Source of the DNA: a virus
Lineage: Duplodnaviria; Heunggongvirae; Uroviricota; Caudoviricetes
Reading direction: 5' to 3' (one strand)
DNA: 64,000 bases
IMG/VR virus record: IMGVR_UViG_3300010965_000004
Span: 44,708-108,707 of that record
In this document: piece by piece, positions 1-36,672 of the stretch
Numbering within the stretch: the first letter of the stretch is position 1
Layout of the letters: each line of letters starts with the position of its first letter
Position numbers and translations under genes: made by a program
Notes under the pieces: generated by a model
Databases searched by the model: none
What the model was told of the DNA's origin: nothing
The model's input: only the letters and a program-made list of their open reading frames with translations

Positions 1-445
1 TGATTAGGAGCAAAGTCTGTTATGTAGTTGGGAGTTCCTTTAACATGATAACACCCCATGCAGGCGCTTAGCCCATGAGCTACGTATCCTTGAATTACAT
101 TTGTTTTTGCAACATAGTCAGTGCTATTAAGAATATTTTGTATTGGGTTGGAATTATTATATCCTTTACCAACCAAAGTACTTCTCCTAGGATCAACAGG
201 AGATAAATGTGAGGAATCAATAACCCCGCTGGATTTTCTATGTAGTAATTTCCAACCACTTTCCATTCCCCAAATAGCCATTGCTACATAAAGAATATCA
301 GGAGCAGTCTTTAATAAAGGGAAGTATTGGTCGATGCTTTTCTTCGTAATGTCAGCAAGAGTTATCATATAGCTATTATCACTAGCTGGTTTACTCTGTT
401 TTACATTTTTAGAGTTGTTAGCAAGTTTAGCAGTGCTATCCGCCA
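1..445 (-). CDS. hypothetical protein, partial (3' part runs off window start)
   Basis: minus-strand reading frame open to position 1, ATG at 443-445; no recognisable motif. Confidence 0.35.
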
Positions 446-2269
446 TTAGTATCGCCCTTTTCCACCTTCACCAAACTCATTACCAATCATGTAAGGAGCT
501 ATAGGATCCGTTCCATGTACCGAAGATTTCTGTCCAAGAGCAGCAGCTTCTTGAATTGTATGGTGTAACCTATTGAAAGATAACTTGGAAACCCAGTTCT
601 TATCTAGCATCTTCAAACTTTGCAAGCCAGGAACTAGAGCCTGAATCTTGAGCCCCGAGTTACTAATTGCTACTTGCTTAATATCCTTAGCTGCCAAATC
701 ATCCAAATGGTTCTTAGTTAGCAAGGTCCCAGGGGTAAGGTCTAATAGATTTTCCGCTAGGGTTTCATTCTCAGCTTTTTCTAAAGGAACTACTTTAGAG
801 TGTTCTCTTAAGTAATGAGCAATAACTCCTACATCTACCTTATCCCCTGGTAAGAATCCACTCTCGCCGGGATCTACAATTTCATTGTACTTTATCATGT
901 TTCTAGCAATAATATCAAAGTGACGTGGGTCTAATTGAGCATTACGAGAATAAATCTCCCTCATCTTGTTAGCTAGATAAATTCTACCTGCGCCAGCTCC
1001 TTTAAGATCAACCAATTCCCTAGGGTTAGCTGTACCAGTAGATAACATATCTCCGACTCTAACCGTATCCCCTACTGCTACAGTAGGCTCCTGGAAATTA
1101 GGGATGAAGTGATTGTGACCATCAACGTCTACTTCCCAGTCTTTCAGAGAGGTTTGAGTTAAAGATCTTACCTGCCCATTTTTCTTTGATATAGTAGCTT
1201 CGTCTTGGAAGTTTTCTGGGTTGGATAAAAGGTTATTAGCTTCTTCATAAGGATTGCGTTGTTTACCAGCAACTCCACCTTGGTGTTTTGTTCCCAACAT
1301 TGCCTGGGTTAAAACTTCAGAAACTGACTGAGCTGCAATAACTCCAACGTTCTGTCCAATGAACGGAAATTCTCCATTAGCGGCTAACCCATAACACTTC
1401 TGGCAAATACCTTCCTTGGCTTTGCAAGTCATAGGACTACGAGCCACTATGAATTTCTTTCCGTCTGCTCTTTCTTGTTTAAAATAAGCTTCATCAATAG
1501 TTTTACCAGTTGAGACCTCTACTCTACCAACGCAAGATAACTTGTCTGTGATAGGGATAGGAATACCTGTCTTAGAACCACAGTCAGGTTCTGTGATGAT
1601 TTCATGGAAGACGGTAGGGGTTAGTTTTTTAAACAGCGCACCAGGCTTCTCTGTTGATAACTGGGACATAACAGTAGAAGCTCTACCCCCATAAGAAGTG
1701 GCTAAGTGTTCTGCATTAGATAAGCCCTCAGCATAAGAATGGCGAATCATAAGGGGAATAGGAATACCTTTTACATCAGCGGCCATCAAAGGAGATGCTG
1801 TTCCTTGTTGAAGCTGAGCCGGATTACCACGAGCTCCAGTTTTTGACATTCTAGCGGCGGTTGACCCCCTTGAGACCATATACGCTAAATTCTCTTTTGA
1901 TAATCGTCCTGAATAAATCCTAGCCAACTCGTTAAGTTGTTTAGCCTGTTCCATCTTAGGAAGACCTTTTTTAAGAATCTCTGTAAGTTTAATTTCAAAT
2001 TCAGAAAATAATACCTGTCTTTCATCAGAATCATTTAAATAATCGGATAGTGGGGTTGTTGCTCCTATTTCAGTAGCTTTATTAAAGAACAATTTACCTA
2101 ATGAATTGATAATTTCGGGGCCTTTATCCCCGCCATGTTCAATCAAGATATTAACTAATTCTGACATACCTTTTTTGTCTATAGGATTGTATAAATCAAA
2201 TTTATCCTGGGAAGCTTTGTTAGGTAACATGCCTTTGATAAGCAGTGCTCCTGGCGTGGTAATTGTCAT
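446..2269 (-). CDS. rpoC: RNA polymerase beta' subunit, C-terminal module (trigger-loop region)
   Basis: 607 aa; motif IAAQSVSEVLTQAMLGTKHQGG resembles beta' G/trigger-loop AAQSIGEPGTQLTMRTFHxGG; lacks DxDGD so is the C-terminal half. Confidence 0.7.
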   Translation of the reverse strand: MTITTPGALLIKGMLPNKASQDKFDLYNPIDKKGMSELVNILIEHGGDKGPEIINSLGKLFFNKATEIGATTPLSDYLNDSDERQVLFSEFEIKLTEILKKGLPKMEQAKQLNELARIYSGRLSKENLAYMVSRGSTAARMSKTGARGNPAQLQQGTASPLMAADVKGIPIPLMIRHSYAEGLSNAEHLATSYGGRASTVMSQLSTEKPGALFKKLTPTVFHEIITEPDCGSKTGIPIPITDKLSCVGRVEVSTGKTIDEAYFKQERADGKKFIVARSPMTCKAKEGICQKCYGLAANGEFPFIGQNVGVIAAQSVSEVLTQAMLGTKHQGGVAGKQRNPYEEANNLLSNPENFQDEATISKKNGQVRSLTQTSLKDWEVDVDGHNHFIPNFQEPTVAVGDTVRVGDMLSTGTANPRELVDLKGAGAGRIYLANKMREIYSRNAQLDPRHFDIIARNMIKYNEIVDPGESGFLPGDKVDVGVIAHYLREHSKVVPLEKAENETLAENLLDLTPGTLLTKNHLDDLAAKDIKQVAISNSGLKIQALVPGLQSLKMLDKNWVSKLSFNRLHHTIQEAAALGQKSSVHGTDPIAPYMIGNEFGEGGKGRY

Positions 2270-2290
2270 ATGAGATTCCTGTGTTGTATT

Positions 2291-2312
2291 TTGGTATAAG
2301 TATTTTAGAAGA
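2291..2312 (+). promoter_or_regulatory. conserved phage promoter (TGGTATAAG extended -10 + TAGAAG)
   Basis: TGGTATAAG at 2291-2299, 45 nt upstream of ATG 2344; RBS TAGGAGCCAA. Confidence 0.5.
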
Positions 2313-2343
2313 TTAACCTTAGATAGTCAACTTAGGAGCCAAA

Positions 2344-2949
2344 ATGAGTAAACACCGTGGGTATATCCAATTAGCAGATCCTATACCCGTAGAACCCATT
2401 GTTGAAGCAATGAAACGAGGGGAGGAATTCTTTCATGTTAAAGGTATTGGGGATGTTAGTATTTCCTCAACCAGACTAATGACCTATACAAAGGGAACAA
2501 CCTGTGTTACTTGCGGGATTCAAGCAAGTTTCTTTATTTTTGAAAAACAGAAAAAAATGGGTGGGAGAGGCCATTTAAATTTATATGTTGATCGGGGTAA
2601 AGATGGATTAACGATGATGACCTCAGACCATATTATAGCAAAGTCTAGGGGGGGAGCTAGAAATGGTCTTGAAAATCGTCAACCTATGTGTTGTACCTGT
2701 AACCAAAAAAAGGGCAATTTGTTACCCGGAGAGGTTGCTCCTCCTAAAAAACTAAGAAACAAAAAAAATCCTTTTGGAATAAAGGTTTGTTTAAAAAAGT
2801 TTTTGGAATTACCTATACATTTTAAAAGGGGTATGCCTTTAGAAACATTTTATAAACAACGGGCTCTAAGGTTATACAATCTTCTAAAGTTAGAACACTT
2901 GCTTTCCGAAGAAGAAAGATTTGTCTTTCGTAATTCCGGTTTGGTGTAA
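2344..2949 (+). CDS. HNH endonuclease
   Basis: 201 aa; ...SDHIIAKSRGGARNGLENRQPMCCTCNQKKG HNH-type motif; own promoter; sits between the two beta' ORFs. Confidence 0.65.
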   Translation: MSKHRGYIQLADPIPVEPIVEAMKRGEEFFHVKGIGDVSISSTRLMTYTKGTTCVTCGIQASFFIFEKQKKMGGRGHLNLYVDRGKDGLTMMTSDHIIAKSRGGARNGLENRQPMCCTCNQKKGNLLPGEVAPPKKLRNKKNPFGIKVCLKKFLELPIHFKRGMPLETFYKQRALRLYNLLKLEHLLSEEERFVFRNSGLV

Positions 2950-2951
2950 GA

Positions 2952-2981
2952 AAAAGCCCGGTTTGAATCCGGGCTTTTTTA
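2952..2981. terminator. bidirectional rho-independent terminator
   Basis: AAAGCCCGG-N8-CCGGGCTTTTTT hairpin with T-run, between convergent genes. Confidence 0.6.
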
Positions 2982-3560
2982 ACTAGGCATATCTGGCCAA
3001 GTTCTATTACTTTTTCTAACATTATCTGGTTTTGGTAATAATTGCAAGTTAGCTTCGCAATGTAGTCCACAAACTATTTCAGATTTCAATGGAACTATAT
3101 GATCTACTTGAATTTCTATACCTTGTTTCTCTGATTCTATTTTTGCTAATTTATAAAAACTATTAATTTTATCTTGATTGGCCCACGATGGAGTAGCTTG
3201 TTTTTGGCTGGCTCGATATTTTGCTCTCCTAGCATTATTTAATTCTGGAAATTTTTGCTGATAAAGTTGCTTACGTTCTTTTTGATAAGGAAGGGTTTCA
3301 TAGTAATGTTCTTTACCTCTAGCCTTTTTTCTAGCAGTTCGTTTTTCTAAAACATGTTTAGGAGGATTCTCTAAGTACTTTCTGTTATTCTCTAATTCAT
3401 GTTGTCTATTAGCCTCGTAATGGGCTTTTCTATAAATCTTTTGACAGGATATACAAGTGTACTTAAAACCTTTGGTAAAAGGTCTATTATCTTTATTAAA
3501 ATTTTCTGAGGTTAAATCAAAATCTTTTTTACAATGGTTACACTTTCTCTTTTCTATCAT
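2979..3560 (-). CDS. HNH homing endonuclease
   Basis: 193 aa; C-terminal HIVPLKSEIVCGLHCEANLQLLP HNH motif, N-terminal CxxC zinc ribbon; paralog of 9932..10522; overlaps end of beta'N ORF. Confidence 0.65.
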   Translation of the reverse strand: MIEKRKCNHCKKDFDLTSENFNKDNRPFTKGFKYTCISCQKIYRKAHYEANRQHELENNRKYLENPPKHVLEKRTARKKARGKEHYYETLPYQKERKQLYQQKFPELNNARRAKYRASQKQATPSWANQDKINSFYKLAKIESEKQGIEIQVDHIVPLKSEIVCGLHCEANLQLLPKPDNVRKSNRTWPDMPS

Positions 3561-4695
3561 TTTCTTCTATTTCCACTGGAGTATTTTCTTTAATTGTACC
3601 AGCTTTTAAGGCATTGAGGCAATCTTGTTCAGTTTTAAATTTAACTATTTCTTGCTTATTATCATGTTCAGTCATAAACATTGACCCTAAGACAGCCTCG
3701 TGGCTTGGCATTATCATAGATTGGCCTAAACCACGTCTATAGTCATGGATTTGGTGCATAGGCAATAACTTGTTCTTAGCTTCCTGAACGGCTTCTGGAG
3801 TCATAGGAGTATGCAAGGTTAGCGCATCCCCGTCATAGTCCCCAGCAAACAGAGGCAAGTGCATTGGATTCAATCCCAATGTGCTACCATTGATAGGAAC
3901 AGGATAAACAGCCGTGATATTAGACTTCATTAGAGTCGGGGCTCTATTAATAATCAAAGGAATGTTTTTTATAACCTTGTTAAAACTATGCGTTGCAGCT
4001 GGAGTTCTTTCTGTCCAGGCTTTTTCAGAGTTAACGTAGTCATAGCCTTGTTTAGCCAAGTCACGCAGAATATGGAACTTGTACATCGTCCAAAGCATGT
4101 CTCTAGGAACAGCAGCTTCGTTAAATCCTAAGTTAGGTTCAGCGTAAATCGTCGCACGTCCAGAGAAGTCTTGTTTCTTAGAAAGAACCTTATTATGGAA
4201 CAGGCCAGTCTTAGGCCCGCCAGTTCCGGCGACTTGACGGAGAAGTCCTTTAACCCCTCTACCTTTGGCATTGGGAGAAATAGCTTCACCAAGTCCTACA
4301 ATTGCTTTAATACCGTTGTAAGCATCTGCTCGCTCTTTAACCAATTCGTCTGGATTCAAATGATCTATAACTTCTTTCAAGGAATTGTTAACGGTCATGT
4401 GATCTTTATACAGCTGGTTAATATCAGCAAACTCAATACGGTTCCCCCCCATTATAGTAGCTGGACGAACCTGTGGAGGAACCACCGGAAGATACTTAAG
4501 AATGTATGCTTCCTTAGCACTCAGTCCAGTATTTTTTAACCCGTTGAGGAACTTGATTCGTTTAACCAAGTCATCTTTCTTGGAGACAGACTTGACCGTT
4601 TTGATTTCTTCAATCAAAGCTGGCATCTTGGTTTCTGGTTTAACGTGAGAGAGCATTGCCGAAAAAGCATGGCCTCCAACTAATAGTTCTGACAT
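3538..4695 (-). CDS. rpoC: RNA polymerase beta' subunit, N-terminal catalytic module
   Basis: 385 aa; PLFAGDYDGDALTLH matches the beta' Mg-binding NADFDGDQM motif. Confidence 0.7.
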   Translation of the reverse strand: MSELLVGGHAFSAMLSHVKPETKMPALIEEIKTVKSVSKKDDLVKRIKFLNGLKNTGLSAKEAYILKYLPVVPPQVRPATIMGGNRIEFADINQLYKDHMTVNNSLKEVIDHLNPDELVKERADAYNGIKAIVGLGEAISPNAKGRGVKGLLRQVAGTGGPKTGLFHNKVLSKKQDFSGRATIYAEPNLGFNEAAVPRDMLWTMYKFHILRDLAKQGYDYVNSEKAWTERTPAATHSFNKVIKNIPLIINRAPTLMKSNITAVYPVPINGSTLGLNPMHLPLFAGDYDGDALTLHTPMTPEAVQEAKNKLLPMHQIHDYRRGLGQSMIMPSHEAVLGSMFMTEHDNKQEIVKFKTEQDCLNALKAGTIKENTPVEIEENDRKEKV

Positions 4696-6600
4696 TTAAA
4701 ATCCTAAGATTGTATCTAAATAAAGACCTAGTCCTGCTAACTTATTAAATCCTTGTGGATGAGCTTTAAACTCCCTAAAGGCGGCATTCACTTTAGCCAT
4801 AGTTTCAGGGTTTCCTCCCCTATCAGGATGATGTTTCATAGCCATTTTCTTATAATGCTTAGAAGCTTCTGCTTTAGTTTTAAATCCTCCAACAGGAGCC
4901 CCTAAATCTTTATAAATAGTCCCCATATCTTTAGGACCATTGGGATTTCCAAAACCCCTGGATCTTTGTTCATTATAATATTTGAAGAAGTCATTAAATT
5001 GAGGACCGGAACTAGAACCAGAAGCGGAGGCTTTATTCCTTGCCCTATTAATAGTCTGGTCAAAGTTTCTAGAGTATCTAGACCCAGGTTGCAATATCTT
5101 CTTCATGGTCTTTACCTTTGATAAATCCCTAGCTGTATTACCTCCTAGAAATGCACCTGCTACAGCGCCAGCAGCCGTTCCCCAAAGTTTTTCTTCTCGG
5201 GTAGTATCTCGTTCTACTGTTTTGAAATCTTTTTGTTCTGTTACTTTGCCCTGAGATAAAGCTGCTCCAGTAGCTCCTCCTGTTAACCCACCGATAATTC
5301 TACCGGCCAATACGGATTTGTTACCCATTCTTCTAGTTAAAGTATCTATTGCTTTTCTAGGATCTGCATAAACAGCTTTCTTTTCTATTGGAGTATCTTT
5401 ACCTTTCATTAAATGCAAGGCTAACGCTGAAGCTGCAACCCCGCTACCGTAAGATAACATATTTTTTGCTGCTACTCCTGTTAGGAATTTTTTCTTCATC
5501 GCGGAAGTACCATGTTGCTTAAGCATTTTGTACCCATGATAATTAGCAGCAGCTTCCCCTCTTAACATTGGGGCAGCAGTTATAATAGGAGCTGTCCAGG
5601 CATAGTCCTTTGTCTTATCATTTTGTAGCATTAAACCACCAGCCATCGCACCTAACCCCATTTTATGAGCTCTAGAGGATAGTCTATAACTTGTTTGTTT
5701 TAAAGAATTAACGAATTTTGATTTACCCTCAAAGTCTTTAGCATGGCCTAACTCATGCAAGGCTATATCTAAATTTCCTACCTTTTTACCAGTGAAGGGA
5801 CTCTTCATATTAATATAGTTCTTCTTCATAGGATTGTTAAAATGGTTACCTGCTTGTTCTTTCCACTCTTTAACCCCAGGTATATAATCTATAATGGACT
5901 TACTTGAAGTAAACTTTTTAAGGGAAGCTCTTACTTTATCATTAGCATATGCAGGACCTGACTTTGATAATATTTCATCAAATGCTTTAGCAGCGCCCCT
6001 ATTTCCACCAAAAGCTTTAGTAGATGAAAAAGTAGTATTTAAACCTTTGTTATCTTTAAGTATCTTTTTCCAAGTAGACTTATCAGTTCCTGGCTTCGAA
6101 TTCAAAGACGTTAAAACGGGTATAGCCCCTAGATTACTAGCAACAGCTCCTACCCCAACAGCACCAGCACCTTTTAAAGCACCAGCTACATAATCAGGTT
6201 TTTCTTTTTTCTCAGCAATCTTTTCCAAGTACTTATTCACATTAGCCTTTTTTTGCATATGATCCATCAAAGCATATCCCGCTGCTCCGCCTCCAGCAGC
6301 TCCAGCGGCTCCTCCTAAGATCTTTCCTGCTCGATAATGAGTTTGCAAACTTTTAACAGCATTTCGTAAGGCTTCTGTAGATCCTTCGGCATGAAAGTCA
6401 TTACCTTTAAGACTAGCAAAAGAAAGCCCTTTACCTACATTTTTAAACTGTTTGCGGGCTCCAATCCTCATTCCTATTCTACCACCTTTATTTCTTAAGG
6501 CCAACGCTCCTAAAGAGCCAAGCCCAATTCCTGCAACTACTTTAGGAAGAAAATCTTGACTTTCTTTCTCAGCAATCTTCTCTAGGTACTTATTCATCAA
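4696..6600 (-). CDS. J-domain protein with HExxH (zincin-like) motif and Gly-rich repeats
   Basis: 634 aa; C-terminal KHYKKMAMKHHPDRGGNPETMAKVNAAFRE = DnaJ J-domain with HPD; internal ALHELGHAKDF; duplicated N-terminal NKYLEKIAEK segments. Confidence 0.5.
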   Translation of the reverse strand: MMNKYLEKIAEKESQDFLPKVVAGIGLGSLGALALRNKGGRIGMRIGARKQFKNVGKGLSFASLKGNDFHAEGSTEALRNAVKSLQTHYRAGKILGGAAGAAGGGAAGYALMDHMQKKANVNKYLEKIAEKKEKPDYVAGALKGAGAVGVGAVASNLGAIPVLTSLNSKPGTDKSTWKKILKDNKGLNTTFSSTKAFGGNRGAAKAFDEILSKSGPAYANDKVRASLKKFTSSKSIIDYIPGVKEWKEQAGNHFNNPMKKNYINMKSPFTGKKVGNLDIALHELGHAKDFEGKSKFVNSLKQTSYRLSSRAHKMGLGAMAGGLMLQNDKTKDYAWTAPIITAAPMLRGEAAANYHGYKMLKQHGTSAMKKKFLTGVAAKNMLSYGSGVAASALALHLMKGKDTPIEKKAVYADPRKAIDTLTRRMGNKSVLAGRIIGGLTGGATGAALSQGKVTEQKDFKTVERDTTREEKLWGTAAGAVAGAFLGGNTARDLSKVKTMKKILQPGSRYSRNFDQTINRARNKASASGSSSGPQFNDFFKYYNEQRSRGFGNPNGPKDMGTIYKDLGAPVGGFKTKAEASKHYKKMAMKHHPDRGGNPETMAKVNAAFREFKAHPQGFNKLAGLGLYLDTILGF

Positions 6601-9600
6601 ATCCTCACAGTTCTAACAGTCTTTTCATTTGAAGTATCTACTATTTCAAAAGTACCTTCGCCTAGATCCTTGACTCCGTATTTACCGCTGGTTATGTTAT
6701 CAAACTCAACGGTACTAAGACCAAGAACACTCTTCACAGGATTTTCGAAAACTGGGTTTACAACAGGTTCAGCTAACTTATAATGACTCCACTTATCACC
6801 ACGTAAGCCCCCTGTTATAACCTGGTCAAATAACCCACCATCTTCTGGCTCAAGGTTTTTAGCATTAAGCATTGAAGGTTCTTTTAGTTCCCCGTTGCTT
6901 TGATCAAGAATATCATGATCGGTTAAAGGTATGGCTGTAATGTTGTCTCTATCAATTTTAACATTAACCCCTGAACCTCTCAGGTAATCAAGAAACTTTT
7001 TCGTAGCAAAAGTAGTTTTGGGTTTAGGTAAAGGTTCCCCTCTAATAAACTTAGACCAGTACTCGTCATTCTGCTCGGATTTAACGGTACCAATCTCTTT
7101 TAGATTCTTACGGGCATCGGAACCAAGAAGTCCCAACATTTCCATATATCCAACAGATTTGGAACCTTCTTCACCGCCTTTGGTTGGCTGCATAACATTA
7201 TCGTAGCCCCCAACGTTTCTAGCTGAGTAGTTCTGGTCTGTAGTCTTGTATAGTTTGATAATATACTGTGGCCCATTAAAAATCTGGCCGAATGAATGGC
7301 CGGTCTTAGGGTCAACAAGTTCATTAGTATCGCTTAGACCATGCTTAGCTAACTCATCCTTCAAATTCTGAATGTTATTTCCAGACTCGAAGTTCTTCAC
7401 CTCATAGACCTTGCCAGTTTTCTGTGCAATCTTACCAGCGACAGTTTCCATGATCTGTCCAAGGTTGATACGAGAAGTAACAGAGGCAGGATTAAGAACC
7501 AAGTCAACAGCCTTGCCAGTTTCCTTGTTGGTAGGCATTTCATGATCTTCAAGGATCAAGGAAACAATACCCTTGTTACCGTGAAGGCCAGTTAGCTTAT
7601 CTCCAACTTCCAGGGCCTTTACACTTCTAAGAAGAATTCTGACTGACTTGCTTTCTGTGTGAGAATCAACAACTTCTCCATTCTCTTCGTGATTCCAAGG
7701 CTCAATAATAAGACGATAAGGATTAACTAGGCTCTTATGTAAACGACCAAGCAATCTATCTTCGGGAGTAGGTTCACGCTTTTCAAGAATAGCAACAACC
7801 GGATCATTATAATTCATGATCATTCCAACTTTGGCGTACCCCTGGTCATCAAGTTTTTCTAATTGATCAGGTGTAAACTTACCAGGAAAGTATCTCTTTA
7901 AAAGAGACTTACGGGCAACTGTGTTTGGGTTAACTTCATAGTCAATCTTATAGGCATGGTGAGAACTTAAGCTATCGGCAGCAGTTCTGGAGATAACGAT
8001 TCCGTCTTCATGGTTGTAGCCTTTATAAGGCATATAGGCCGCAGTAAGGTTTTTGCCTAAGGCTAGACTTCCCCCCTTAGTGTAGTTGTTCTCAAAAAGA
8101 GGTTGATTTTCATGAACTTTATCCCCAACTTTAACTAAAGGAATTTCATCATCATGAAACCCTTTCATGTTAAAGGGTAGATTCTTTACCGCTACCACTT
8201 TATGGATAACTCCGCTATCTCCTTGAATTTGAATTTCTTTGTTACTCACTTTCAGAACAACTCCATTTTCAGGAGAAGCAGTGGCCAATACTTCATTTAA
8301 CTTTTTAACGAAAGGTCGCCCTTTACTATCCAAAGTCTGAACCAAAGGGGCTTCTCTTTCAACTAAGGAAAGCGCTTGCGGAATAGCCTTACCAGCCATA
8401 GTTAAACGGCCAGGGTGATTTGAATTAAGGAAAGGAACTAGATTAGTTGTAACTGTATATAGATCGGTAGCATCATTTAGCCAGTAATCTACTTTGGCCT
8501 TGGGAACACGTTTCATTTCTCCATGATCTTGCGCTTCAATCATACCAGTTTTGTTCTTCTGGTCAGGAAAGCCAATACAAGAATTCATTACTTCAGTTAC
8601 AGAGATGTGTTTAACTTTGCCAGCTTTATCAATAACCTTAGCATATAAGTGACCCTCTTCGTCTCTAGCCGAAGAAATAGTAAAACGCTGATCGATACCT
8701 GCATGTCCTGACTCAGGGGTTCTAGAAGGGTCAAGGATTCCTAAATGGGAAGGGTCAATATTACGTGCAGCCATAGGCACACCACGTTCATCCCCAATAC
8801 CGCCTTCAGCTGGTCCTAAGATTGTACACTTACCTACATTTTCCAGACTTTCGATAGGATTTGTTTCAGATGGGGTTGAGATAAGTGAACTAGCTTGTAT
8901 ATATGCAGAGTAAACTTTATTAAAGGGTTTGGATGGAACTGCATCGGTAATTCTTGGTTTGTTTTGGTCAATCTTTTCCAGACCAAAAGTTAGCTTGTTC
9001 TTAACTCTACGAACCGTTTCGTGTTCCTTGGCAAAACGAGTACGAAGGAAGTCAGGTAGATTCTGAACTCTCTTAAACTGTAAGGAGTCACGATTGTCTT
9101 CCTGTCTTTCACCTTTGTGTACTTGAACCAAATTACGAAGGGTGTAAAGAATAGCTTCTTTAGTAACACCTGTAAAGGATTTTCCTAAAGTAGCTTGTGT
9201 GGTTTCTGCGCTTAGCTGAGACTGTTCAAGGGAAGTACGAAGTTCGGACGACATAAGTTCTAGACTTGGGTTTTCATTTTTGCTGTAAACCATTCTAGAA
9301 TATAGATTGCGAACTGTCTTTTCTTCCTTACCTGCTGTATAAGCGATGTTGGCATCCCAAACATCAGCTGGAATGTACTTCTCAGCTTCAGACTTTGTTA
9401 CTCCAAAGACATGAGTTAATAGTGGTCCTACAGGAGTGTGAGAGCTACCAACCTCTAGGAAGAAAACTTTGGTTTTTGGGTCCAGTACAATACGGAAGCT
9501 TGCACCTTTGGCTGTATTAAAGTGAGCTTCGAGTTCATTTGTATTTTCTCGTAAACGGGTATAAACCCCAGGTAATAGTTGTAGTTGATTTGAGACATTA

Positions 9601-9935
9601 TAATTATTTCCCTTCAAAAGTAAAGTATGCTTCGTGGTAAGGTAAAAGGAGTCCATGAGAGGAAAATCTTTAACATGGTCTACCACCTTACCAGTAGTTT
9701 TAGAGATGAGGGTCAAGTCTCCTTTAATAGGATAGGTTAATGACTTCGATTTAAGAATAGCTTCTTTTTCGTCAATATGAGTAAAAGGTTTAGGGTGAGC
9801 TTTAATGTTGTCTATAGATAATGTATAAAATTTTCCTTCTATTGGGAATGATTTGGCCAAACTTTCCACCAAAGCTTTATCCGCTCTTTCGTTAATAGCC
9901 TTGGGAGACGAATAAATAGGGGTTAATTTTGTCAT
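6597..9935 (-). CDS. rpoB: RNA polymerase beta subunit
   Basis: 1112 aa; LHGNKGIVS...VDLVLNPASVTSRINLGQIMET matches beta RHGNKGVIS...[21 protein letters not shown]. Confidence 0.8.
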   Translation of the reverse strand: MTKLTPIYSSPKAINERADKALVESLAKSFPIEGKFYTLSIDNIKAHPKPFTHIDEKEAILKSKSLTYPIKGDLTLISKTTGKVVDHVKDFPLMDSFYLTTKHTLLLKGNNYNVSNQLQLLPGVYTRLRENTNELEAHFNTAKGASFRIVLDPKTKVFFLEVGSSHTPVGPLLTHVFGVTKSEAEKYIPADVWDANIAYTAGKEEKTVRNLYSRMVYSKNENPSLELMSSELRTSLEQSQLSAETTQATLGKSFTGVTKEAILYTLRNLVQVHKGERQEDNRDSLQFKRVQNLPDFLRTRFAKEHETVRRVKNKLTFGLEKIDQNKPRITDAVPSKPFNKVYSAYIQASSLISTPSETNPIESLENVGKCTILGPAEGGIGDERGVPMAARNIDPSHLGILDPSRTPESGHAGIDQRFTISSARDEEGHLYAKVIDKAGKVKHISVTEVMNSCIGFPDQKNKTGMIEAQDHGEMKRVPKAKVDYWLNDATDLYTVTTNLVPFLNSNHPGRLTMAGKAIPQALSLVEREAPLVQTLDSKGRPFVKKLNEVLATASPENGVVLKVSNKEIQIQGDSGVIHKVVAVKNLPFNMKGFHDDEIPLVKVGDKVHENQPLFENNYTKGGSLALGKNLTAAYMPYKGYNHEDGIVISRTAADSLSSHHAYKIDYEVNPNTVARKSLLKRYFPGKFTPDQLEKLDDQGYAKVGMIMNYNDPVVAILEKREPTPEDRLLGRLHKSLVNPYRLIIEPWNHEENGEVVDSHTESKSVRILLRSVKALEVGDKLTGLHGNKGIVSLILEDHEMPTNKETGKAVDLVLNPASVTSRINLGQIMETVAGKIAQKTGKVYEVKNFESGNNIQNLKDELAKHGLSDTNELVDPKTGHSFGQIFNGPQYIIKLYKTTDQNYSARNVGGYDNVMQPTKGGEEGSKSVGYMEMLGLLGSDARKNLKEIGTVKSEQNDEYWSKFIRGEPLPKPKTTFATKKFLDYLRGSGVNVKIDRDNITAIPLTDHDILDQSNGELKEPSMLNAKNLEPEDGGLFDQVITGGLRGDKWSHYKLAEPVVNPVFENPVKSVLGLSTVEFDNITSGKYGVKDLGEGTFEIVDTSNEKTVRTVRI

Positions 9936-10522
9936 AGTATTTCCTCAATAAATTTTGAATGCTTTTGCAAATTTTCTTTTGCTTGTATAACTCTTAGATT
10001 GGTCTCTACATGCAAACCACAAACTAATTTTCCTTTTAAAGGAATTATATGGTCTACATGATGTTCAATACCCGTTTCTAAAGTAAGTCTATCTCGTTCT
10101 TTATATATCTCTTTTATCGATTCTTTATTAGCCCAAGAGACAAAGGCTTTTTCTAGATGTAAAGTTCTTTTTCTAGATTTCGAAATATAATATTCCTTAT
10201 CTTTTAGGTATCGTTTTTTTGATCTTTCTTTTTCGTACTCTGGATTATTTTTCAACCATAATTTACGAGTTATTTCACAAGATGTTCTATTATCCAAATA
10301 ATATTTTTTGGAAGCTAGTTTTTTAGTTTCTTTGTTATCTAAATAATACGTTTTTTTCTGTTGTAATATTTCTTCTCGTTTTTTTTCGTATCGCTCTTTA
10401 TCTTGATCTTTGCGACACGACGAGCAACAATAGTATAAACCATCAGAAGTTTTTTTGTCTTTAGGAAAATTTTCCAAAGACTTTTCTTCCTTACATTTAT
10501 TACAAACTTTTGTTTCAGTCAT
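9932..10522 (-). CDS. HNH homing endonuclease
   Basis: 196 aa; HHVDHIIPLKGKLVCGLHVETNLRVIQ HNH motif, N-terminal CxxC; paralog of 2979..3560; ATGA overlap with rpoB start. Confidence 0.65.
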   Translation of the reverse strand: MTETKVCNKCKEEKSLENFPKDKKTSDGLYYCCSSCRKDQDKERYEKKREEILQQKKTYYLDNKETKKLASKKYYLDNRTSCEITRKLWLKNNPEYEKERSKKRYLKDKEYYISKSRKRTLHLEKAFVSWANKESIKEIYKERDRLTLETGIEHHVDHIIPLKGKLVCGLHVETNLRVIQAKENLQKHSKFIEEIL

Positions 10523-10778
10523 TTTTTTCTAGATAACTTATTATAACAAAATATTGAGTCATAAATCCCATTTTATCCTTTGTTAAAAGGACAATATCAT
10601 CACCGCGTATAGCTCTTGTCTCAATATCTGATAAAGAAGTTAAATCCCCTAAATCGTCTAAATCAAATTTTCCATATTTAACCGAATACCCTTGTAAATA
10701 CTTCTGGGCATTTCCACCCAGCTTATCCGTAATTCCCGGCATCGATAGTTCTTCTGTCATCATTCCTGGCATACTCAT
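10515..10778 (-). CDS. hypothetical protein
   Basis: 87-aa ORF in operon context, no motif. Confidence 0.35.
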   Translation of the reverse strand: MSMPGMMTEELSMPGITDKLGGNAQKYLQGYSVKYGKFDLDDLGDLTSLSDIETRAIRGDDIVLLTKDKMGFMTQYFVIISYLEKND

Positions 10779-12589
10779 TTAGGTGCTCCTTGATCCTTTG
10801 GTTTTGCTGGCTTCTCTGATTTACTAGGTGCTTGTCCAGATTGACCTTGTCCTCCTGGTTGCCCCGGTTGTCCAGGTTGCCCAGCAGAGCCACCTTGTCC
10901 TGGCTCCTTGACAGGTTTACCATCTGGGCCAATTTCTGGTTGGGCAGAAGCTGCTGTCTCATCCAGAATCTTAGCTGCCAGCAAATAGATAGTATAGTTT
11001 TCAGTCTTAAGCTGGTTAAGCATACTCATTCGTGTCATTTCATCAGCAGGATAAATCTGTTCAGCAACTGCTTGAGCTTGCAACATAATTTCTTTATAAC
11101 CGTCGTTTCCTTCCATTTGTTGTCCGAGGTCCTTAGCAGCAACAAAGTGAGCTTGATCATTTTCGTATTGAGTTTCAATTGCCACTCTTGTTCTTGTAAC
11201 AGACTCTTCCTTGATTTTTTCCTGTTCTTGATTGAAGTCAAGACCAATTTCTTCAAACAGAGTAGTTTGAGAAGCCAATCCACCTTGAGCCAATTGCGAC
11301 AACAGAACCTTGAAATTATCATCGTCAAGTAACTTAAATGGAACCAGACCAACATCAATCTTTTCCAGAGTTAAGTAGGCAGCAACCTTATCCACTACCC
11401 ATTCAATTAAATCAGTTAATCTACCGATATAAGAAGTAAGTAGATTCTCCATCATCCTTAGACCAATACTACTACTGGTCCAATTTGTGGTTCCACTTAA
11501 CAACTCCATTGAAACCCCAAGGGATAACAAAATACTTTGTTCAGCTTGTTGAATTTCTTGGGCAACTAAAAGGTTCTTCCCTTCTCCTCCAATCGGAGTA
11601 TACCCAACTGGAGTCGGGGCAATAAGTATGTGATTCTTATCTCTCTTATGTAAAAGAAGAGCCTGTTCCATGTTGGTCTTAAAAGTACGAAGACTCATAG
11701 CAATAACAGGATCAGAGTTTCCAGTTTGAGCCTGTGGGAAAATAACACGTAAAGGGTTTAAATATTCCGTAGCAATAGCTTCATTAGCCTTACGCAAAGT
11801 AGCTTGATAGAAAACCAAGGAGAACAAGGAAAGAAGTGGGGGAATAGCAATTCCCTCAACGGAACCTCCAGAGGAGATATTCTTTAAATGGAATAAGCTA
11901 CCCTTATCAAATTTAAAGTCCTGGTTGTGTCTAACGGCTTCAACAAATTCCCAAGGAATTGAATCTACAAATAATCTATCTCCCTTTTGAATCTTCAGCT
12001 TTACAGAGTTAGGAATCTTGTAATAAAACTCGCTCTCTCCAGTAATAGGGTTATGGCTAACTGCTATATGTTCCGGGTTCCACTTGATGAAGTTCATATC
12101 CTCAATAGCTAACGACTTAGTATCTCTTCGTTTAAAGATACCTGTGAAATTACAGTGTGGGCATGAGCCACTAAACTGGTATTGTTTAAAAACTAACCAC
12201 GGAGCTTTTTTTACATTATATACAGCTTTGCACATAGGACATTCAATTTCTCTATGAATAGGGAAGTAGATTGAAACAAAGACATTACCTAAGGTAAAGA
12301 AATCGAAGCCAGCATCCTGTAAAGCCTCTTTGAGCTTGAACGATTTTACAATTTCCTTGTAACGTTTCTTTGTTCCTTCTTGTTCTGTATTGAATGTGAA
12401 TTCGGTAATAGGATAGGTCGCCAACTTTCTGATAACTTCAGAAGTAGTAGGAGACTGTATAGTAATATACCTAGCCCAACGAATAACATCGTGTAAGTTT
12501 CTTGGTACGAATTGATTAGCGACAGTGAACCAAGGGTTAGTTTGTTGCCCACCTTGACCCTGTTGGAACGGTAAATTTGGAATGTCCAT
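10775..12589 (-). CDS. hypothetical protein with zinc ribbon and Gln/Pro/Gly-rich C-terminal tail
   Basis: 604 aa; CPMCK...CPHCN ribbon; tail GQPGQPGQPGGQGQSGQ; first gene of the minus-strand RNAP operon. Confidence 0.45.
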   Translation of the reverse strand: MDIPNLPFQQGQGGQQTNPWFTVANQFVPRNLHDVIRWARYITIQSPTTSEVIRKLATYPITEFTFNTEQEGTKKRYKEIVKSFKLKEALQDAGFDFFTLGNVFVSIYFPIHREIECPMCKAVYNVKKAPWLVFKQYQFSGSCPHCNFTGIFKRRDTKSLAIEDMNFIKWNPEHIAVSHNPITGESEFYYKIPNSVKLKIQKGDRLFVDSIPWEFVEAVRHNQDFKFDKGSLFHLKNISSGGSVEGIAIPPLLSLFSLVFYQATLRKANEAIATEYLNPLRVIFPQAQTGNSDPVIAMSLRTFKTNMEQALLLHKRDKNHILIAPTPVGYTPIGGEGKNLLVAQEIQQAEQSILLSLGVSMELLSGTTNWTSSSIGLRMMENLLTSYIGRLTDLIEWVVDKVAAYLTLEKIDVGLVPFKLLDDDNFKVLLSQLAQGGLASQTTLFEEIGLDFNQEQEKIKEESVTRTRVAIETQYENDQAHFVAAKDLGQQMEGNDGYKEIMLQAQAVAEQIYPADEMTRMSMLNQLKTENYTIYLLAAKILDETAASAQPEIGPDGKPVKEPGQGGSAGQPGQPGQPGGQGQSGQAPSKSEKPAKPKDQGAPK

Positions 12590-12673
12590 ATAATATCCTA
12601 ATAAGTTTAACTATTTTATTTTAAGACAATTGAAGACATAAGTCAAGAATAGTTAGATTACGTTAAAACCTTG

Positions 12674-12695
12674 TGGTATAAGAAGTACAGAAGGG
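12674..12695 (+). promoter_or_regulatory. conserved phage promoter
   Basis: TGGTATAAG at 12674-12682 before gene 12716. Confidence 0.45.
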
Positions 12696-12715
12696 AAAAT
12701 TAACTTGGAGGAATC

Positions 12716-14011: not shown

Positions 14012-14493
14012 GATACAAAGGTAAATTGCTTCTGGAGTTTACTAAGGAAGGCGTTTGGTTTCCCTATAAAGGAGATGAGGTTCTACGCTCTTGGCCTTGG
14101 AAAAAGATAGATGGGAATAACAAGTATAGGTGTTCGTCTCGTCTTGGTTCTTATTTAAATTTTGCTAACTATAAAGCTAGCCTTGATGAACGAGGAGTAG
14201 TAAATGGAAAAATTACAGGGTTTAGCCTATCTCATATTATTCTTAATTGGGCTGGCATTCATCTGCGTAGCGGTTTTAACGTGGTACTTTTTGATGTTAA
14301 TGTTAATAGTCGTAACTCTGACTTTTGGGACCGTATACCGGATTTTCAAAAGAAGCAGTTGACTAAGGATGTTGTAGTATTGAATTGCAAGGATATGAGA
14401 GAGGTTAAGCATCTTTGTGATTCCATTAATATGGACTTTGCTATTGCATTAGGGTTTGATCATGGTCGATTGAAGTGCTGGAATGAAGACTAA
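14008..14493 (+). CDS. hypothetical protein
   Basis: 161 aa from ATG 14008 (ATGA-coupled); the track's longer 13963 start is less likely. Confidence 0.4.
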   Translation: MRYKGKLLLEFTKEGVWFPYKGDEVLRSWPWKKIDGNNKYRCSSRLGSYLNFANYKASLDERGVVNGKITGFSLSHIILNWAGIHLRSGFNVVLFDVNVNSRNSDFWDRIPDFQKKQLTKDVVVLNCKDMREVKHLCDSINMDFAIALGFDHGRLKCWNED

Positions 14494-16493
14494 TGATAAT
14501 ACAAACTACAGCAGATGGTAAGAACGTATTATTTAACCCAGAGAACTTAAAGGAACGAAGACTTCTAGAAGCAATGCCTGCTTTCTCTAGGCAGGGGTTG
14601 AATATCTTCGTTCCCAATAAGAAGAGTATTGTCTATAACCTATATACTCGCTGTCGTAAGAAAATCAAGGATATAAAATATACCTCTGAAATCAAAGCTT
14701 TACTAGAGGGGGATATCAAGTTAAAAGAGATTCCTTCAGAGTTTCTATTCCACACAACTCCCTTACCACATCAACTAATTGCTCTACGGTTCGCTTACAC
14801 CTTTGGGTGCTTTGGGCTACTACTAGAACCTGGACTTGGTAAGACCAAGATTATCCTGGATTTTATCTGGTTGATGCAATTAAAGAAATCTTTGATCATC
14901 TGCCCTAAGCCCCTTCGCTTCGTATGGGAAGATGAAGTTGTCAAACATAGACCTGAGCTAAAGATATATGTTATTAAGACTACTGATTGGGAATTAGAGA
15001 AGAAGGAAGTATTGGCTGCGGATGTAGTTGTCATTAACTATGATAAAGCAGTTGCTCTCCTGGAAGTTCTGCAGAAGCTCCAGTTCGATTTCTTAGGAGT
15101 AGATGAGGGACTCATCAAGAATCCTTCTACGGATCGAACCAAGGCCATTACAAAGCTTTCTAAAGGCATACCTGCTCGTAGTATTATGTCAGGAACTCTG
15201 GTTAACAACTCCCCGCTAGATATCTTTGCCCCTATCAGAATGATTGAACCTTCTCTGGTAGGAGAGGCATTTGGAAAGTTTAGAGACGAGTATGCAATCG
15301 CCAGTAGACATAACAGATACATTACTGTTGGGTACCGAAATGTAAACGAGGTTAAGGACATACTAAGTTCTTGTAGTATCATAATGAAGAAAGAAGAATG
15401 GTTAAAAGATCTTCCGCCAAAAGAGTTTAAACATATATACGTTCAAATGGGGGATCAACAACGTGATTACTACCAAAAGTTAGCGAACAATTATCTTCTA
15501 CAACTTGAAGATTTAGGAGCTGAAGTAGAAGTAGATAACCCTTTAACCGTCCTTATAAAACTAACCCAAATTTCAAATGGTTTTCTTTACTATCAGGAAG
15601 ACACAGATGAAACTTTAGAAGAGTTATACGGAAATGAACCAAAACGCAAAAGCAAGATTGACAGAAAGACTTATTTCTTCGAAGAACAACCAAAAGCCCT
15701 TGCCCTCATCAGTCTCCTCCGATCCGATAACTTTAAGTCGGAAGTCAACGCTGTCGACTTGGGAGAAGACAATAAGGCTAAACGCAACAACCCTAATGAG
15801 CACCCCTTACCACTTTTCGAGGGATCTACACACAGGGGAGCTACGAAGCATAGTGAAATACTTCACCCGAAGAGAGTTGGAAAATATAACTGGAAGATTG
15901 TTACCAAGGGATGCAATACGAATCTTTATAATGGATGCCTTTATTCACGACATCCAAAGAAACTTTCTACCAAACGTAAGTCTGTTACAAATAATGTGTT
16001 ATTTGAACCCGGTGCTAGACGAGCGATTATCTGGTTTAACATGGCCGCTGAGCTCAGTATCCTGGAGTCACATCTACGTGCGGCTGGAATATCCTTCCTT
16101 ACAATTTCAGGTGGAGATGGTCAATTAGGAGAAAAGGTTCATAGATTCAATAAAGATCCAAGTATAGGATACTTGTTATGTCAAGCTAAGACAATTAATT
16201 ACGGCGTGACTATTATGGGATCTGATGATGAAAGAGATGAGGATGCTTTACGAGAATTTGATTCGTTGGTTTCCGATGAAATCTTCTATTCTCAAAATTT
16301 CTCTCTTGAGGTCTTTCTACAACAGCAAGACCGCATTCACCGTATTGGACAAACACGTACATGTAGGTATTGGATTTTGTTAACTAACTCCCCTATTGAA
16401 CGTAGGATAGCTGAAAGACTGGAAGAGAAACTTCTTTGTAATAAAGAGATTCTAGTTGACATTTCCAAAGCACTTGACCTAAACGATTTATAA
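14493..16493 (+). CDS. SNF2-family helicase
   Basis: 666 aa; LLLEPGLGKTK (motif I), VDEG (II), QQQDRIHRIGQTR (SNF2 motif VI). Confidence 0.75.
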   Translation: MIIQTTADGKNVLFNPENLKERRLLEAMPAFSRQGLNIFVPNKKSIVYNLYTRCRKKIKDIKYTSEIKALLEGDIKLKEIPSEFLFHTTPLPHQLIALRFAYTFGCFGLLLEPGLGKTKIILDFIWLMQLKKSLIICPKPLRFVWEDEVVKHRPELKIYVIKTTDWELEKKEVLAADVVVINYDKAVALLEVLQKLQFDFLGVDEGLIKNPSTDRTKAITKLSKGIPARSIMSGTLVNNSPLDIFAPIRMIEPSLVGEAFGKFRDEYAIASRHNRYITVGYRNVNEVKDILSSCSIIMKKEEWLKDLPPKEFKHIYVQMGDQQRDYYQKLANNYLLQLEDLGAEVEVDNPLTVLIKLTQISNGFLYYQEDTDETLEELYGNEPKRKSKIDRKTYFFEEQPKALALISLLRSDNFKSEVNAVDLGEDNKAKRNNPNEHPLPLFEGSTHRGATKHSEILHPKRVGKYNWKIVTKGCNTNLYNGCLYSRHPKKLSTKRKSVTNNVLFEPGARRAIIWFNMAAELSILESHLRAAGISFLTISGGDGQLGEKVHRFNKDPSIGYLLCQAKTINYGVTIMGSDDERDEDALREFDSLVSDEIFYSQNFSLEVFLQQQDRIHRIGQTRTCRYWILLTNSPIERRIAERLEEKLLCNKEILVDISKALDLNDL

Positions 16494-31185: not shown

Positions 31186-31270
31186 ATCCTTTGGGTCTTC
31201 AAAAAATGATCGTAAACCTTTCCAAGGAAAGGTCTGTTGGACGCGGGTTCGACTCCCGCCAGCTCCACCA
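31186..31270 (+). ncRNA. ssrA: tmRNA acceptor piece (3' tRNA-like half: T-arm + 3' acceptor strand + CCA)
   Basis: GGACGCGGGTTCGACTCCCGCCAGCTCCACCA near-identical to the E. coli tmRNA 3' end; lies upstream of the GGGGCUG 5' end, so the gene is permuted. Confidence 0.6.
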
Positions 31271-31353
31271 AAAAAACCTAGATTGGCTTAGTTGGCTAAA
31301 GCTAATTTTCTAAACTACGTGTAAGTCGTAGTGCCTGTTAGGGTTTTTCTGAT

Positions 31354-31640
31354 GGGGCTGTACCTGGTTTCGACAGCGGATTGATGTACGAAGAGTAGGC
31401 GATCCGAGGGGCATTCCTCGTAAAAATAGCAAATGCAATAAATGCCGCTAATGATAGCAGCTTCGCCCAGGTCCGCCTCGCGGCCTGATAGGTGAATGGG
31501 GTAGCCACTCTAATATCCAATAGCATAGGTATACTATGCGTTGGTGTGTTAGCCTTATTAACCAAAGGTGGCAACAATTCTACTCTGTATCTGCCGAGGG
31601 GAACCGTTCAACGAACAATAAATCTTCGTTGTTACCAAGT
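31354..31640 (+). ncRNA. ssrA: tmRNA coding piece (5' acceptor strand GGGGCUG, tag reading frame, pseudoknot region); 3' boundary approximate
   Basis: GGGGCTGTACCTGGTTTCGAC...; CTCGTAAAAATAGCAAAT then GCA AAT GCA ATA AAT GCC GCT AAT GAT AGC AGC TTC GCC CAG GTC CGC CTC GCG GCC TGA = ANAINAANDSSFAQVRLAA*; G3:U70 with acceptor piece. Confidence 0.55.
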
Positions 31641-34547: not shown

Positions 34548-34624
34548 TGCGGGATAGAGCAGTTGGTCAGCTCGTTAGCCTCATAAGCTAAAGGTCAGGG
34601 GTTCGAGTCCCCTTCCCGCTACCA
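34548..34624 (+). tRNA. tRNA(CAU) Met or Ile2
   Basis: cloverleaf; anticodon loop CTCATAA; T-arm AGGGGTTCGAGTCCCCT; CCA encoded; U1-U72 mispair. Confidence 0.65.
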
Positions 34625-34975
34625 GTGTTTTTAATAAGCAGACTTCCCATAATGATTCCTCTCATATGGTGAGAAGCTAGTCCAGGAGTGGACTCTGCCA
34701 AATAACTCAGCAACTGACCAGTGAAGGTCAGTTTCTAGAGAGCGTAGCTCATGCAGAATAACTGCGACTACTGAATCGGATGGCTCCTATAGGTAAGAGC
34801 TACGTTCTCCAGAAACTGACTAACAAACGAATTACAAGTAGAAGTCCTAGCGGGTATATGTGCCCCTACGCTGGGGTGGATGTATCCGGTGGCCTGGCAG
34901 CTACGAGAACATTTCATGCCAGGGGATAGGAGGACTAGGATGACTACTTGGGATTTCAACTAGGGAAAATTATGA
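34625..34975 (+). ncRNA. candidate structured non-coding RNA
   Basis: ORF-free; nested inverted repeats incl. a 22-bp near-perfect pair CAGTTTCTAGAGAGCGTAGCTC / GAGCTACGTTCTCCAGAAACTG and CCTGGCA..TGCCAGG. Confidence 0.3.
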
Positions 34976-35163: not shown

Positions 35164-35338
35164 TCCAACCCCTGACTGTGGCCACGGTCTTGGCAAGGAA
35201 ATCTTGAAAGGATTAAACGTGTACAGACTAGAGTGTTGCACCAGGCTACTAGTTCCAAGAGCCTGCCAAAAAGGAACACCCGGCAGTTGACCAGCGTCAT
35301 GAACTGGGATATACTATTAGGGTTGAAAAAAGAAAGTT

Positions 35339-36671: not shown

Positions 36672-36672
36672 G

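Follow-up and report, generated by a model that had tools for sequence, protein, structure and literature searches.

A gene module for a multisubunit RNA polymerase (RNAP) was investigated in a tailed phage (Duplodnaviria; Heunggongvirae; Uroviricota; Caudoviricetes) represented by IMG/VR record IMGVR_UViG_3300010965_000004. The window, i.e. the whole stretch of DNA that was analysed, comprises 64,000 nucleotides (nt) and corresponds to positions 44,708 to 108,707 of this record. The module is located in a block of virion genes, next to the portal gene, and its RNAP-related open reading frames (ORFs) all lie on the minus strand in a single run that begins with the portal gene. An earlier note on this DNA, made from its letters, had described an intact beta gene, a beta' gene divided into two ORFs at the point of the cyanobacterial and plastid rpoC1/rpoC2 split, and HNH homing endonuclease genes at every gene junction. 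The six ORFs named in this description (446-2269, 2344-2949, 2979-3560, 3538-4695, 6597-9935 and 9932-10522) were all recovered, and a Pfam search of the three polymerase ORFs, which gave matches to Rpb2_6, Rpb1_1/Rpb1_2 and Rpb1_5, confirmed that a multisubunit RNAP is encoded. IMG/VR was scanned with an alignment of the middle part of beta' (beta'mid), which yielded 66 loci (numbered with the prefix L), about 50 of them belonging to the lineage of the window. Contigs of this lineage are those of Salmonella phage Arash, of Vibrio phages and of IMG/VR loci; the closest deposited relatives are Arash and Vibrio phage D181, with about 53% identity. The features of the module and the sigma gene of the window are as follows.

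10775-12589, minus strand: portal protein gene (phrog_2739; 46% identity to Arash gp204 'portal protein'; syntenic in about 45 relatives)
10515-10778, minus strand: small conserved ORF of 87 residues, for which tblastn gave matches at this position in most split-subclade loci
9932-10522, minus strand: HNHc, an HNH/endonuclease VII-like gene between the 87-residue ORF and beta (phrog_1035, 6e-24)
6597-9935, minus strand: beta::beta'N fusion ORF of 1,112 residues (Pfam Rpb2_6 and a beta' N-terminal profile)
4696-6597, minus strand: ORF of 633 residues between beta::beta'N and beta'mid, related to two leader-bearing protein families, A and B
3538-4695, minus strand: beta'mid, 385 residues, bearing the DYDGD motif (Pfam Rpb1_1 and Rpb1_2)
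2979-3560, minus strand: HNHa, an HNH/endonuclease VII-like gene (phrog_26577 and phrog_1035)
2951-2981, both strands: bidirectional terminator-like hairpin with an 11-bp stem and U-tracts on each strand
2344-2949, plus strand: HNHb, an HNH endonuclease gene (Pfam HNH, 3e-8; 15 PHROG HNH families)
2302-2330, minus strand: match to the sigma-70-like promoter consensus upstream of beta'C (TTGACT-17-TAAAAT)
446-2269, minus strand: beta'C, 607 residues, with F-loop, bridge helix and trigger loop (Rpb1_5, 1e-17)
61288-62049, minus strand: sigma-70-family gene (Sigma70_r2, 6e-8; r4, 3e-4; phrog_351, 4e-29)

The ORF of 87 residues showed no match to a Pfam or PHROG family; in relatives without the HNH insertion it is located directly upstream of beta. 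An assembly artefact is ruled out, since the contig of the window was recovered from two samples and since beta, a leader-bearing gene and beta'mid also follow one another in L006 and L031, two independent metagenome contigs. When the whole module was compared with 50,697 phage records at the level of near-identical nucleotides, no match was obtained; relatives exist at the protein level only.

Division of beta and beta' among the ORFs

The beta portion of ORF 6597-9935 comprises residues 1 to about 994 (6954-9935). It matched Rpb2_6 at 5e-56 over residues 594-920 and contains the GDK..HGNKG motif of the beta double-psi beta-barrel region, and the Arash homolog of the ORF aligned to solved beta chains with expectation values (E) down to 7e-72. 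Beta itself is therefore whole, as had been stated, but the same ORF also carries a beta' N-terminal portion of about 118 residues at its end (residues ~995-1112; 6597-6953, including the stop codon). In Arash and in Vibrio phage D181, a single ORF of about 1,525 residues is homologous to both 6597-9935 and 3538-4695, and the match of the fused Arash ORF to solved beta' chains begins only at E. coli residue 177, so that the first ~170 residues of beta' must sit elsewhere. A profile of the C-terminal 173 residues, made from 27 relatives, matched about 55 solved beta' chains, all of them at residues 8-65, with a best E of 1e-3 against solved beta' N-termini. The last 167 residues of the window ORF alone matched Rpb1_1 positions 13-49 with 16.8 bits. 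When the last 133 residues were joined in silico to beta'mid, a single Rpb1_1 match covering positions 13-264 was obtained with 53.6 bits, compared with positions 158-264 and 39.8 bits for beta'mid alone. The fused ORF of L058 showed Rpb1_1 positions 7-255 directly after the beta domains, an order that is also found in Arash gp206.

Three independent tests agree, and as judged by these comparisons the tail of the 'beta' ORF is the beta' N-terminus. It corresponds approximately to E. coli beta' residues 15-170, minus the Cys4 zinc-binding domain. With the N-terminus inside the 'beta' ORF, beta' is divided into three pieces and not into two; the split described in the earlier note is genuine, but its first piece, fused to beta, had been missed. 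The four-Cys zinc-binding domain was not found: the segment GGLFDQVITGGLRGDKWSHYKLAEP of the window contains no cysteine, nor do the corresponding segments of the 27 aligned relatives, so that its loss is common to the whole clade. The Arash record labels gp206 merely as 'subunit beta', and the RNAP passages of the Arash paper (PMC10585845) mention neither a fusion nor a split.

The second piece, beta'mid, corresponds approximately to E. coli beta' residues 175-555 and comprises the clamp helices, the NRAPTLM motif and the catalytic DYDGD motif, the latter at residues 286-290 within AGDYDGDA (284-291). Residues 6-343 aligned to E. coli beta' 180-515 with an E of 1e-43, and Pfam matches were obtained for Rpb1_2 (1.5e-15) and Rpb1_1 (4.6e-10). 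The ORF has its own ATG, preceded by an AGGA ribosome-binding site. The third piece, beta'C, extends from E. coli beta' residue ~570 to the end and is 50% identical to Arash gp216. It aligned to solved beta' chains with an E of 3e-46, including the AAQS..E..TQ....T.H.GG region. Alignment to solved chains thus bore out the assignment of DYDGD to ORF 3538-4695 and of the trigger-loop region to ORF 446-2269 made in the earlier note.

The first break is located near beta' residue ~170, at the site where Thermus beta' carries a lineage-specific insertion of ~290 residues; position 6 of beta'mid aligned to residue 456 of full-length Thermus beta' and to residue 165 of a deletion construct. The alignment suggests that this is a surface site tolerant of interruption. 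The second break lies ~25-60 residues N-terminal of the cyanobacterial rpoC1/rpoC2 split. Cyanobacterial beta' residues 8-14 aligned to phage beta'C residues 26-30, and past the last aligned position gamma continues for ~70 residues, phage beta'mid for ~14. In cyanobacteria and plastids, the subunit is likewise cut after the double-psi beta-barrel, into a part with DFDGD, encoded by rpoC1 (gamma), and a part with bridge helix and trigger loop, encoded by rpoC2 (beta'). Unlike there, the window shows the displaced break, an additional break near residue ~170 and a first piece fused to beta. The two split points that had been equated are therefore near each other, but offset.

The jumbo-phage RNAPs of the phiKZ and AR9 type are alpha-less and built from fragments, the beta' of the virion enzyme consisting of an N-terminal, a middle and a C-terminal piece (PMC7598289). 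Their beta is split, their divergence is extreme and they lack a sigma factor, whereas the window enzyme has an unsplit beta and is accompanied by a sigma-70-family gene. A tblastn search of the window beta against jumbo phages yielded E values of ~1e-8, over 20-27% of beta only. By these alignments cellular RNAPs are far more similar to the window enzyme than are those of the phiKZ/AR9 type, and the likeness to jumbo-phage RNAPs that had been proposed was not sustained. In the rpoB-rpoC fusions of Helicobacter and Wolbachia, the beta C-terminus is covalently linked to the beta' N-terminus and a full beta' follows; unlike these, the window beta keeps only ~118 beta' residues.

Relatives and the origin of the breaks

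The RNAP pieces are kept as ORFs in about 50 relatives, at 45-78% amino acid identity, and range from fully fused to split forms. In L058 and L059, beta and beta' are encoded as one ORF of 2,463 residues (L058:6752-14143). L057 contains a fused beta::beta'N::beta'mid of 1,438 codons, in the vicinity of which a beta'C was not found. The same fusion, with 1,511-1,559 codons and a separate beta'C, is present in L046 and in the Arash-like clade, and the window's clade, comprising about 30 loci, has three ORFs. In a neighbor-joining (NJ) tree of beta and beta'mid, rooted with the single distant sequence L057, the three-piece state was monophyletic and nested among the fused forms. Relatives without insertions have stop and start codons that are adjacent or overlapping at the breaks (TAAAATG in L007; ATGTGA in L029), indicating ordinary translationally coupled genes. 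The size of the junction between beta::beta'N and beta'mid (junction 1) varies among relatives from 11 nt to 8.2 kb, and that of the junction between beta'mid and beta'C (junction 2) from 22 nt to 9.6 kb, frequently with genes on the opposite strand. Head-decoration-like proteins, tail-fibre-like proteins and a papain-like peptidase are among the contents of these junctions.

Both beta' breaks are best read as inherited fissions of an ancestrally continuous beta-beta' gene, the direction of change being deduced from this distribution. The second break probably arose independently of the cyanobacterial split, since the distant relatives L058 and L059 encode beta-beta' as one ORF.

The lineage as such was already known, Arash having been published in 2023. 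The portal, beta, beta'mid and beta'C proteins of Arash and of Vibrio phages D69, D148 and D181 are 45-57% identical to those of the window, and these phages share with it the gene order beside the portal gene, the beta::beta'N fusion, the break before beta'C and the sigma genes. They differ in that beta::beta'N::beta'mid is unbroken, whereas in the window it is cut again and a gene of 1.9 kb is inserted; they also lack the family of leader sequences described below.

Tailed phages of ~100-200 kb known from metagenomes have been described as multimeric-RNAP-encoding Caudovirales (mReC; Weinheimer & Aylward 2020; PMC7481178). The window resembles them as a tailed-phage contig with beta and beta' recognisably homologous to the cellular subunits. 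The large terminase subunit (TerL) of mReC belongs to PF03237; the Arash TerL matched the same family with 23.9 bits against a cut-off of 22, and the window contains no TerL gene. The mReC capsid protein belongs to PF07068 (T4 gp23 type), but Arash gp226 weakly matched PF05065 only, and the window does not include the capsid gene of its phage. The IMG/VR sample identifiers of the analysed loci had no match in the mReC supplements, and the mReC paper (PMC7481178) contains no description of subunit fusion or fragmentation. Possibly, the mReC clade includes this lineage.

Occupants of the junctions

In the window, junction 1 is filled entirely by the ORF of 633 residues, which is not of the HNH type and had been overlooked, so that HNH genes do not occupy every gene junction as had been claimed. 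Its start codon and the stop codon of beta have one base in common (TGATG), and its TAA abuts the ATG of beta'mid. Three parts could be distinguished.

6241-6597, minus strand: part 1, glycine-rich, with the leader at residue 1
5398-6240, minus strand: family A module with HELGHA...RGEAAAN motifs, matching residues 120-397
4699-5388, minus strand: family B module (glycine zipper; J-domain containing HPD), matching residues 404-632

An exhaustive HMMER search yielded 258 relatives (cluster representatives), and two families of free-standing proteins could be distinguished among them. Family A is widespread in phages and accounts for roughly half of the 258 matching cluster representatives; its proteins comprise ~255-305 residues and show invariant HExGHA and R.E..A(N) motifs. 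The AlphaFold model of family A is all-helical and confident, with a predicted local distance difference test (pLDDT) score of 88, and no structural neighbour was found in PDB or BFVD. Family B proteins comprise ~170-260 residues, with glycine-zipper segments and a J-domain whose HPD is invariant in 14 relatives. The family B profile matched the J-domains of Sis1, DnaJ, DNAJA1 and large T antigen with E values from 6e-6 to 1e-3; the single sequence from the window reached 21.2 bits for the J-domain, below the Pfam cut-off of 27.8. Both families begin with MNKYLEKIA, and the window ORF contains this leader at residues 1 and 120, together with a degenerate copy at ~402. The repeated leaders and the two free-standing families together indicate that the ORF arose by in-frame fusion of three genes that were formerly separate. 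In the nearest relatives L006, L031 and L054, the same junction contains shorter homologs. A word-indexed search and a phage tblastn search had suggested an orphan, which was ruled out by the 258 HMMER relatives. An intein, an intron ORF or a read-through of beta was also ruled out, as the ORF lies in another frame, has its own ATG and TAA, carries no splicing signal and has free-standing homologs.

The leader, M(x)NKYLEKIA, is found at the N-terminus of ORFs near the RNAP genes that belong to at least 14 clusters unrelated to one another (loci L004-L054), e.g. L016:13472-14932, L010:11975-13339 and L048:13787-14758. SNF2-type helicases, J-domain proteins and HExxH proteins are among the proteins that bear it. 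It is confined to the three-piece subclade, with 20 N-terminal copies in 596 kb compared with none in 429 kb of the fused subclade. Its codons vary synonymously and the DNA upstream is unrelated, so that selection acts on the leader peptide. A DNA cassette (promoter, ribosome-binding site or recombination box) was ruled out by the same two observations.

The capsid-targeting sequence of phage T4, MKTYQEFIAE, is identical to the phage leader MNKYLEKIAE at 6 of 10 positions, and T4 likewise places a leader of ~10 residues on many unrelated internal proteins from a variable region. The I-A-E of the leader, present twice in the window ORF, fits the L/I-x-E cleavage rule of T4 gp21. Unlike in T4, most copies do not conserve the glutamate at position 10, and neither a T4-type (S77) prohead protease nor a gp23-type capsid protein was recognised in the lineage ORFs scanned. 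By analogy with T4, a packaging-signal role of the leader can be put forward only tentatively. It is conceivable, albeit rather doubtful, that the leader is a signal similar to the T4 capsid-targeting sequence, that the breakpoints are hot spots for cargo genes, and that the 633-residue ORF is a polyprotein cut twice between KIAE and a following K. The leader would then load fast-evolving J-domain, HExxH and SNF2 proteins into the virion beside the RNAP, for injection.

Junction 2 of the window contains HNHa and HNHb, which are convergent and separated by the hairpin at 2951-2981. Its GC-rich stem of 11 bp has predicted energies of -16.7 and -20.5 kcal/mol for the two strands, with z-scores of -4.1 and -3.6. 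HNHa overlaps the last 23 nt of beta'mid, and HNHc overlaps the start of beta by 4 nt. HNHa and HNHc are paralogs (34% identity, E 4e-23), as the earlier note had noticed; both matched phrog_1035 'endonuclease VII' and phrog_26577, stayed below Pfam detection and carry a DHI.P...GLH...NL motif (DH..P...N His-Me). HNHb, by contrast, belongs to a different HNH subfamily. The GC content is 0.281 for HNHc, 0.308 for HNHa and 0.366 for HNHb, compared with 0.40-0.41 for the RNAP genes. HNHa-type homologs were found upstream of beta'C only in L010, L011 and L019. A homolog at the position of HNHc was found in L014, upstream of beta, and is absent there in most relatives. L026 has an HNH homolog on the opposite strand, no homolog of HNHb was found among the related loci, and most genomes that share both breaks have no HNH gene there. 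Because of their low GC content and their sporadic occurrence among relatives, the HNH genes are to be regarded as predicted free-standing homing endonucleases that colonised existing junctions secondarily and did not cause them.

The hexamers TTGACT and TAAAAT before beta'C recur upstream of the portal gene (12618-12646), in both cases as a consensus match only. A shared extended promoter for the portal gene and beta'C was rejected, since the hexamers alone match.

Introns and inteins were found in relatives of the module. The beta gene of Vibrio phage D181 contains a group I intron (L002 13518-13798; RF00028, 100.7 bits), accompanied by an ORF for a homing endonuclease. The intron is inserted at residue 505/506 and is also present in D148 and in the IMG/VR locus L036. 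D69, a close relative of D181, has no beta intron, showing that the intron is polymorphic among close relatives. In L058 and L059, the catalytic DYDGD motif is the insertion site of an intein (Intein_splicing and Hom_end; residues ~1441-1825) with a LAGLIDADG-type domain. The wider lineage thus harbours homing elements of all three classes, i.e. free-standing HNH genes, group I introns with endonuclease and inteins. Within the window, Rfam gave no match in positions 1-12700 even at E<=1, the D181 intron and an intron at 35823-36090 of the window serving as positive controls, and the Pfam scan found no intein domain among the ORFs of the module. Intron or intein continuity between 2269 and 3538, for which the earlier note had called for a check, was thereby not found, the ORFs in between being out of frame or on the opposite strand.

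The intron at 35823-36090 (plus strand) is a group I ribozyme with 74.5 bits. The end of ORF 35233-35973 (plus strand), a fourth HNH gene (HNH_3, 1.4e-6), overlaps with it, and the NT5C-like nucleotidase ORF 36204-36671 follows downstream.

Further features were observed outside the module. ORF 14493-16493 (plus strand) encodes an SNF2-family helicase of 666 residues, homologous to Arash gp198, with ~97 extra residues relative to Arash (the tblastn match is split at 15719/16011). A permuted transfer-messenger RNA encoded by the phage is located at 31208-31488 (plus strand; RF04321, 116 bits), for which ARAGORN predicted the tag peptide AANDSSFAQVRLAA. From 34548 to 54046 (plus strand), ARAGORN predicted 22 tRNA genes for 20 amino acids among small ORFs. 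Rfam also gave 22 tRNA matches in this array, the two sets overlapping only partly, and the region has a higher GC content than the rest of the window.

Proposed assembly and packaging of the divided enzyme, and its significance

In all likelihood, the module encodes the RNAP of an Arash-like large myovirus, made as three polypeptides that go back to heritable gene fissions, and the junctions were colonised later. The explanation given in the earlier note, according to which an ordinary beta is accompanied by a beta' split once at the rpoC1/rpoC2 point and the HNH genes at the junctions mark or cause the split, is improbable. It accounts for the separation of the DYDGD and trigger-loop ORFs, for a break that follows the catalytic double-psi beta-barrel as in cyanobacteria and jumbo phages (PMC7598289), and for the HNH genes in the beta'mid/beta'C gap and upstream of beta. 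It does not accommodate the beta' N-terminus in the 'beta' ORF, which makes two breaks, nor the non-HNH ORF in the first of them, and the second break is displaced from the cyanobacterial position. The relatives with both breaks are mostly free of HNH genes, L007 and L022 approximating an HNH-free ancestor, and the unsplit beta, the sigma factor and the affinity to cellular rather than jumbo-phage RNAPs also speak against it.

It is far less probable still that 446-4695, or 3538-9935, is one gene in which a self-splicing intron or an intein restores a continuous beta'. Genes of relatives have indeed been invaded in this way (the group I intron of D181 and L036, the intein of L058/L059), and the window itself contains a group I intron elsewhere. 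A continuous beta' transcript or polypeptide is nevertheless very unlikely, because no ribozyme was detected in positions 1-12700, the intervening ORFs have their own start and stop codons and are out of frame, one of them being on the opposite strand, a bidirectional terminator lies inside the gap and a promoter-like site precedes beta'C. More than 30 relatives moreover share the breaks with 11 nt to 9.6 kb of unrelated genes between the pieces, and the 633-residue ORF has free-standing homologs and no intein motifs. Equally hard to credit is that the pieces are decaying pseudogenes of a host-captured RNAP from which no enzyme is made. The fragmentation, the invasion by mobile genes and the loss of the zinc-binding domain would fit decay, but this loss is clade-wide, the three ORFs are of full length with intact catalytic and structural motifs, they are conserved in about 50 relatives, and homologous proteins are reported as abundant in passages of the Arash paper on virion preparations (PMC10585845).

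According to the favoured reading of three polypeptides, the first would be beta covalently joined to the first ~118 residues of beta', the second beta'mid with the catalytic DYDGD loop and the clamp helices, and the third the beta'C half with bridge helix and trigger loop. The three pieces, each with its own start codon, would assemble after translation into an alpha-less core, in which the two large subunits might retain a residual tether in the form of the beta::beta'N tail. The core would be directed to promoters by a phage sigma-70-type factor. The sigma gene at 61288-62049 encodes a protein with 40% identity to Arash gp196 and is the probable source of the specificity subunit of the window RNAP; beta'mid keeps the clamp-helix region, which is the sigma docking site. 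No homolog of Arash gp10, a second sigma, was found in the window. The broken junctions became landing sites for accessory DNA, which in the window comprises the leader-gene fusion of 633 residues at junction 1, and the two convergent HNH genes with the bidirectional terminator at junction 2. As selfish elements, the HNH genes probably spread during co-infection by cleaving alleles of the neighbouring conserved RNAP genes that lack an HNH gene.

By analogy with Arash, the virion probably contains the RNAP, which would serve early transcription. A virion-packaged form exists among the jumbo-phage RNAPs (PMC7598289). In the passages of the Arash paper that deal with virion preparations, gp206, gp216 and the sigma factor gp10 are listed among the most abundant proteins, gp206 with the highest spectral count of all, and several products of the beta'mid-beta'C gap are scored as structural (PMC10585845).

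Several points weigh against the reading of a packaged three-polypeptide enzyme. The authors of the Arash paper concede, in the same passages, a possible carry-over of abundant proteins (PMC10585845), and packaging is extrapolated from Arash, whose proteins are only 50-54% identical. Assembly and activity of the three polypeptides are predictions from the genes. No alpha or omega subunit was found among the window ORFs scanned or the parts of the Arash annotation retrieved, a search that was not exhaustive. The scores of beta'N are modest (E ~1e-3 with the profile; 16.8 bits alone), the promoter is a consensus match and the terminator a folding prediction, neither of which a phage RNAP may obey, and the direction of fission rests on an NJ tree with one distant root (L057) and on parsimony.

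Split large subunits of RNAP are known from cyanobacteria, plastids, archaea and jumbo phages, and the origin of the splits is debated, either the mobility of introns and homing endonucleases or inheritance from a split ancestor being held responsible. The lineage of the window offers a graded natural series within one clade, from a chain of 2,463 residues with an intein in its active site, through a two-protein form, to a three-protein form. One of its breaks lies just past the catalytic barrel, near the cyanobacterial and jumbo-phage position and probably independent in origin, and the location of the large Thermus beta' insertion is a second permissive site. Once present, a break is a landing pad for unrelated or mobile genes, rather than their product. 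The shared leader possibly hints at a signal for protein packaging in phages that have been little studied. The beta::beta'N fusion would provide a short covalent tether in an alpha-less enzyme, which makes the role of tethering in the assembly of RNAP testable.

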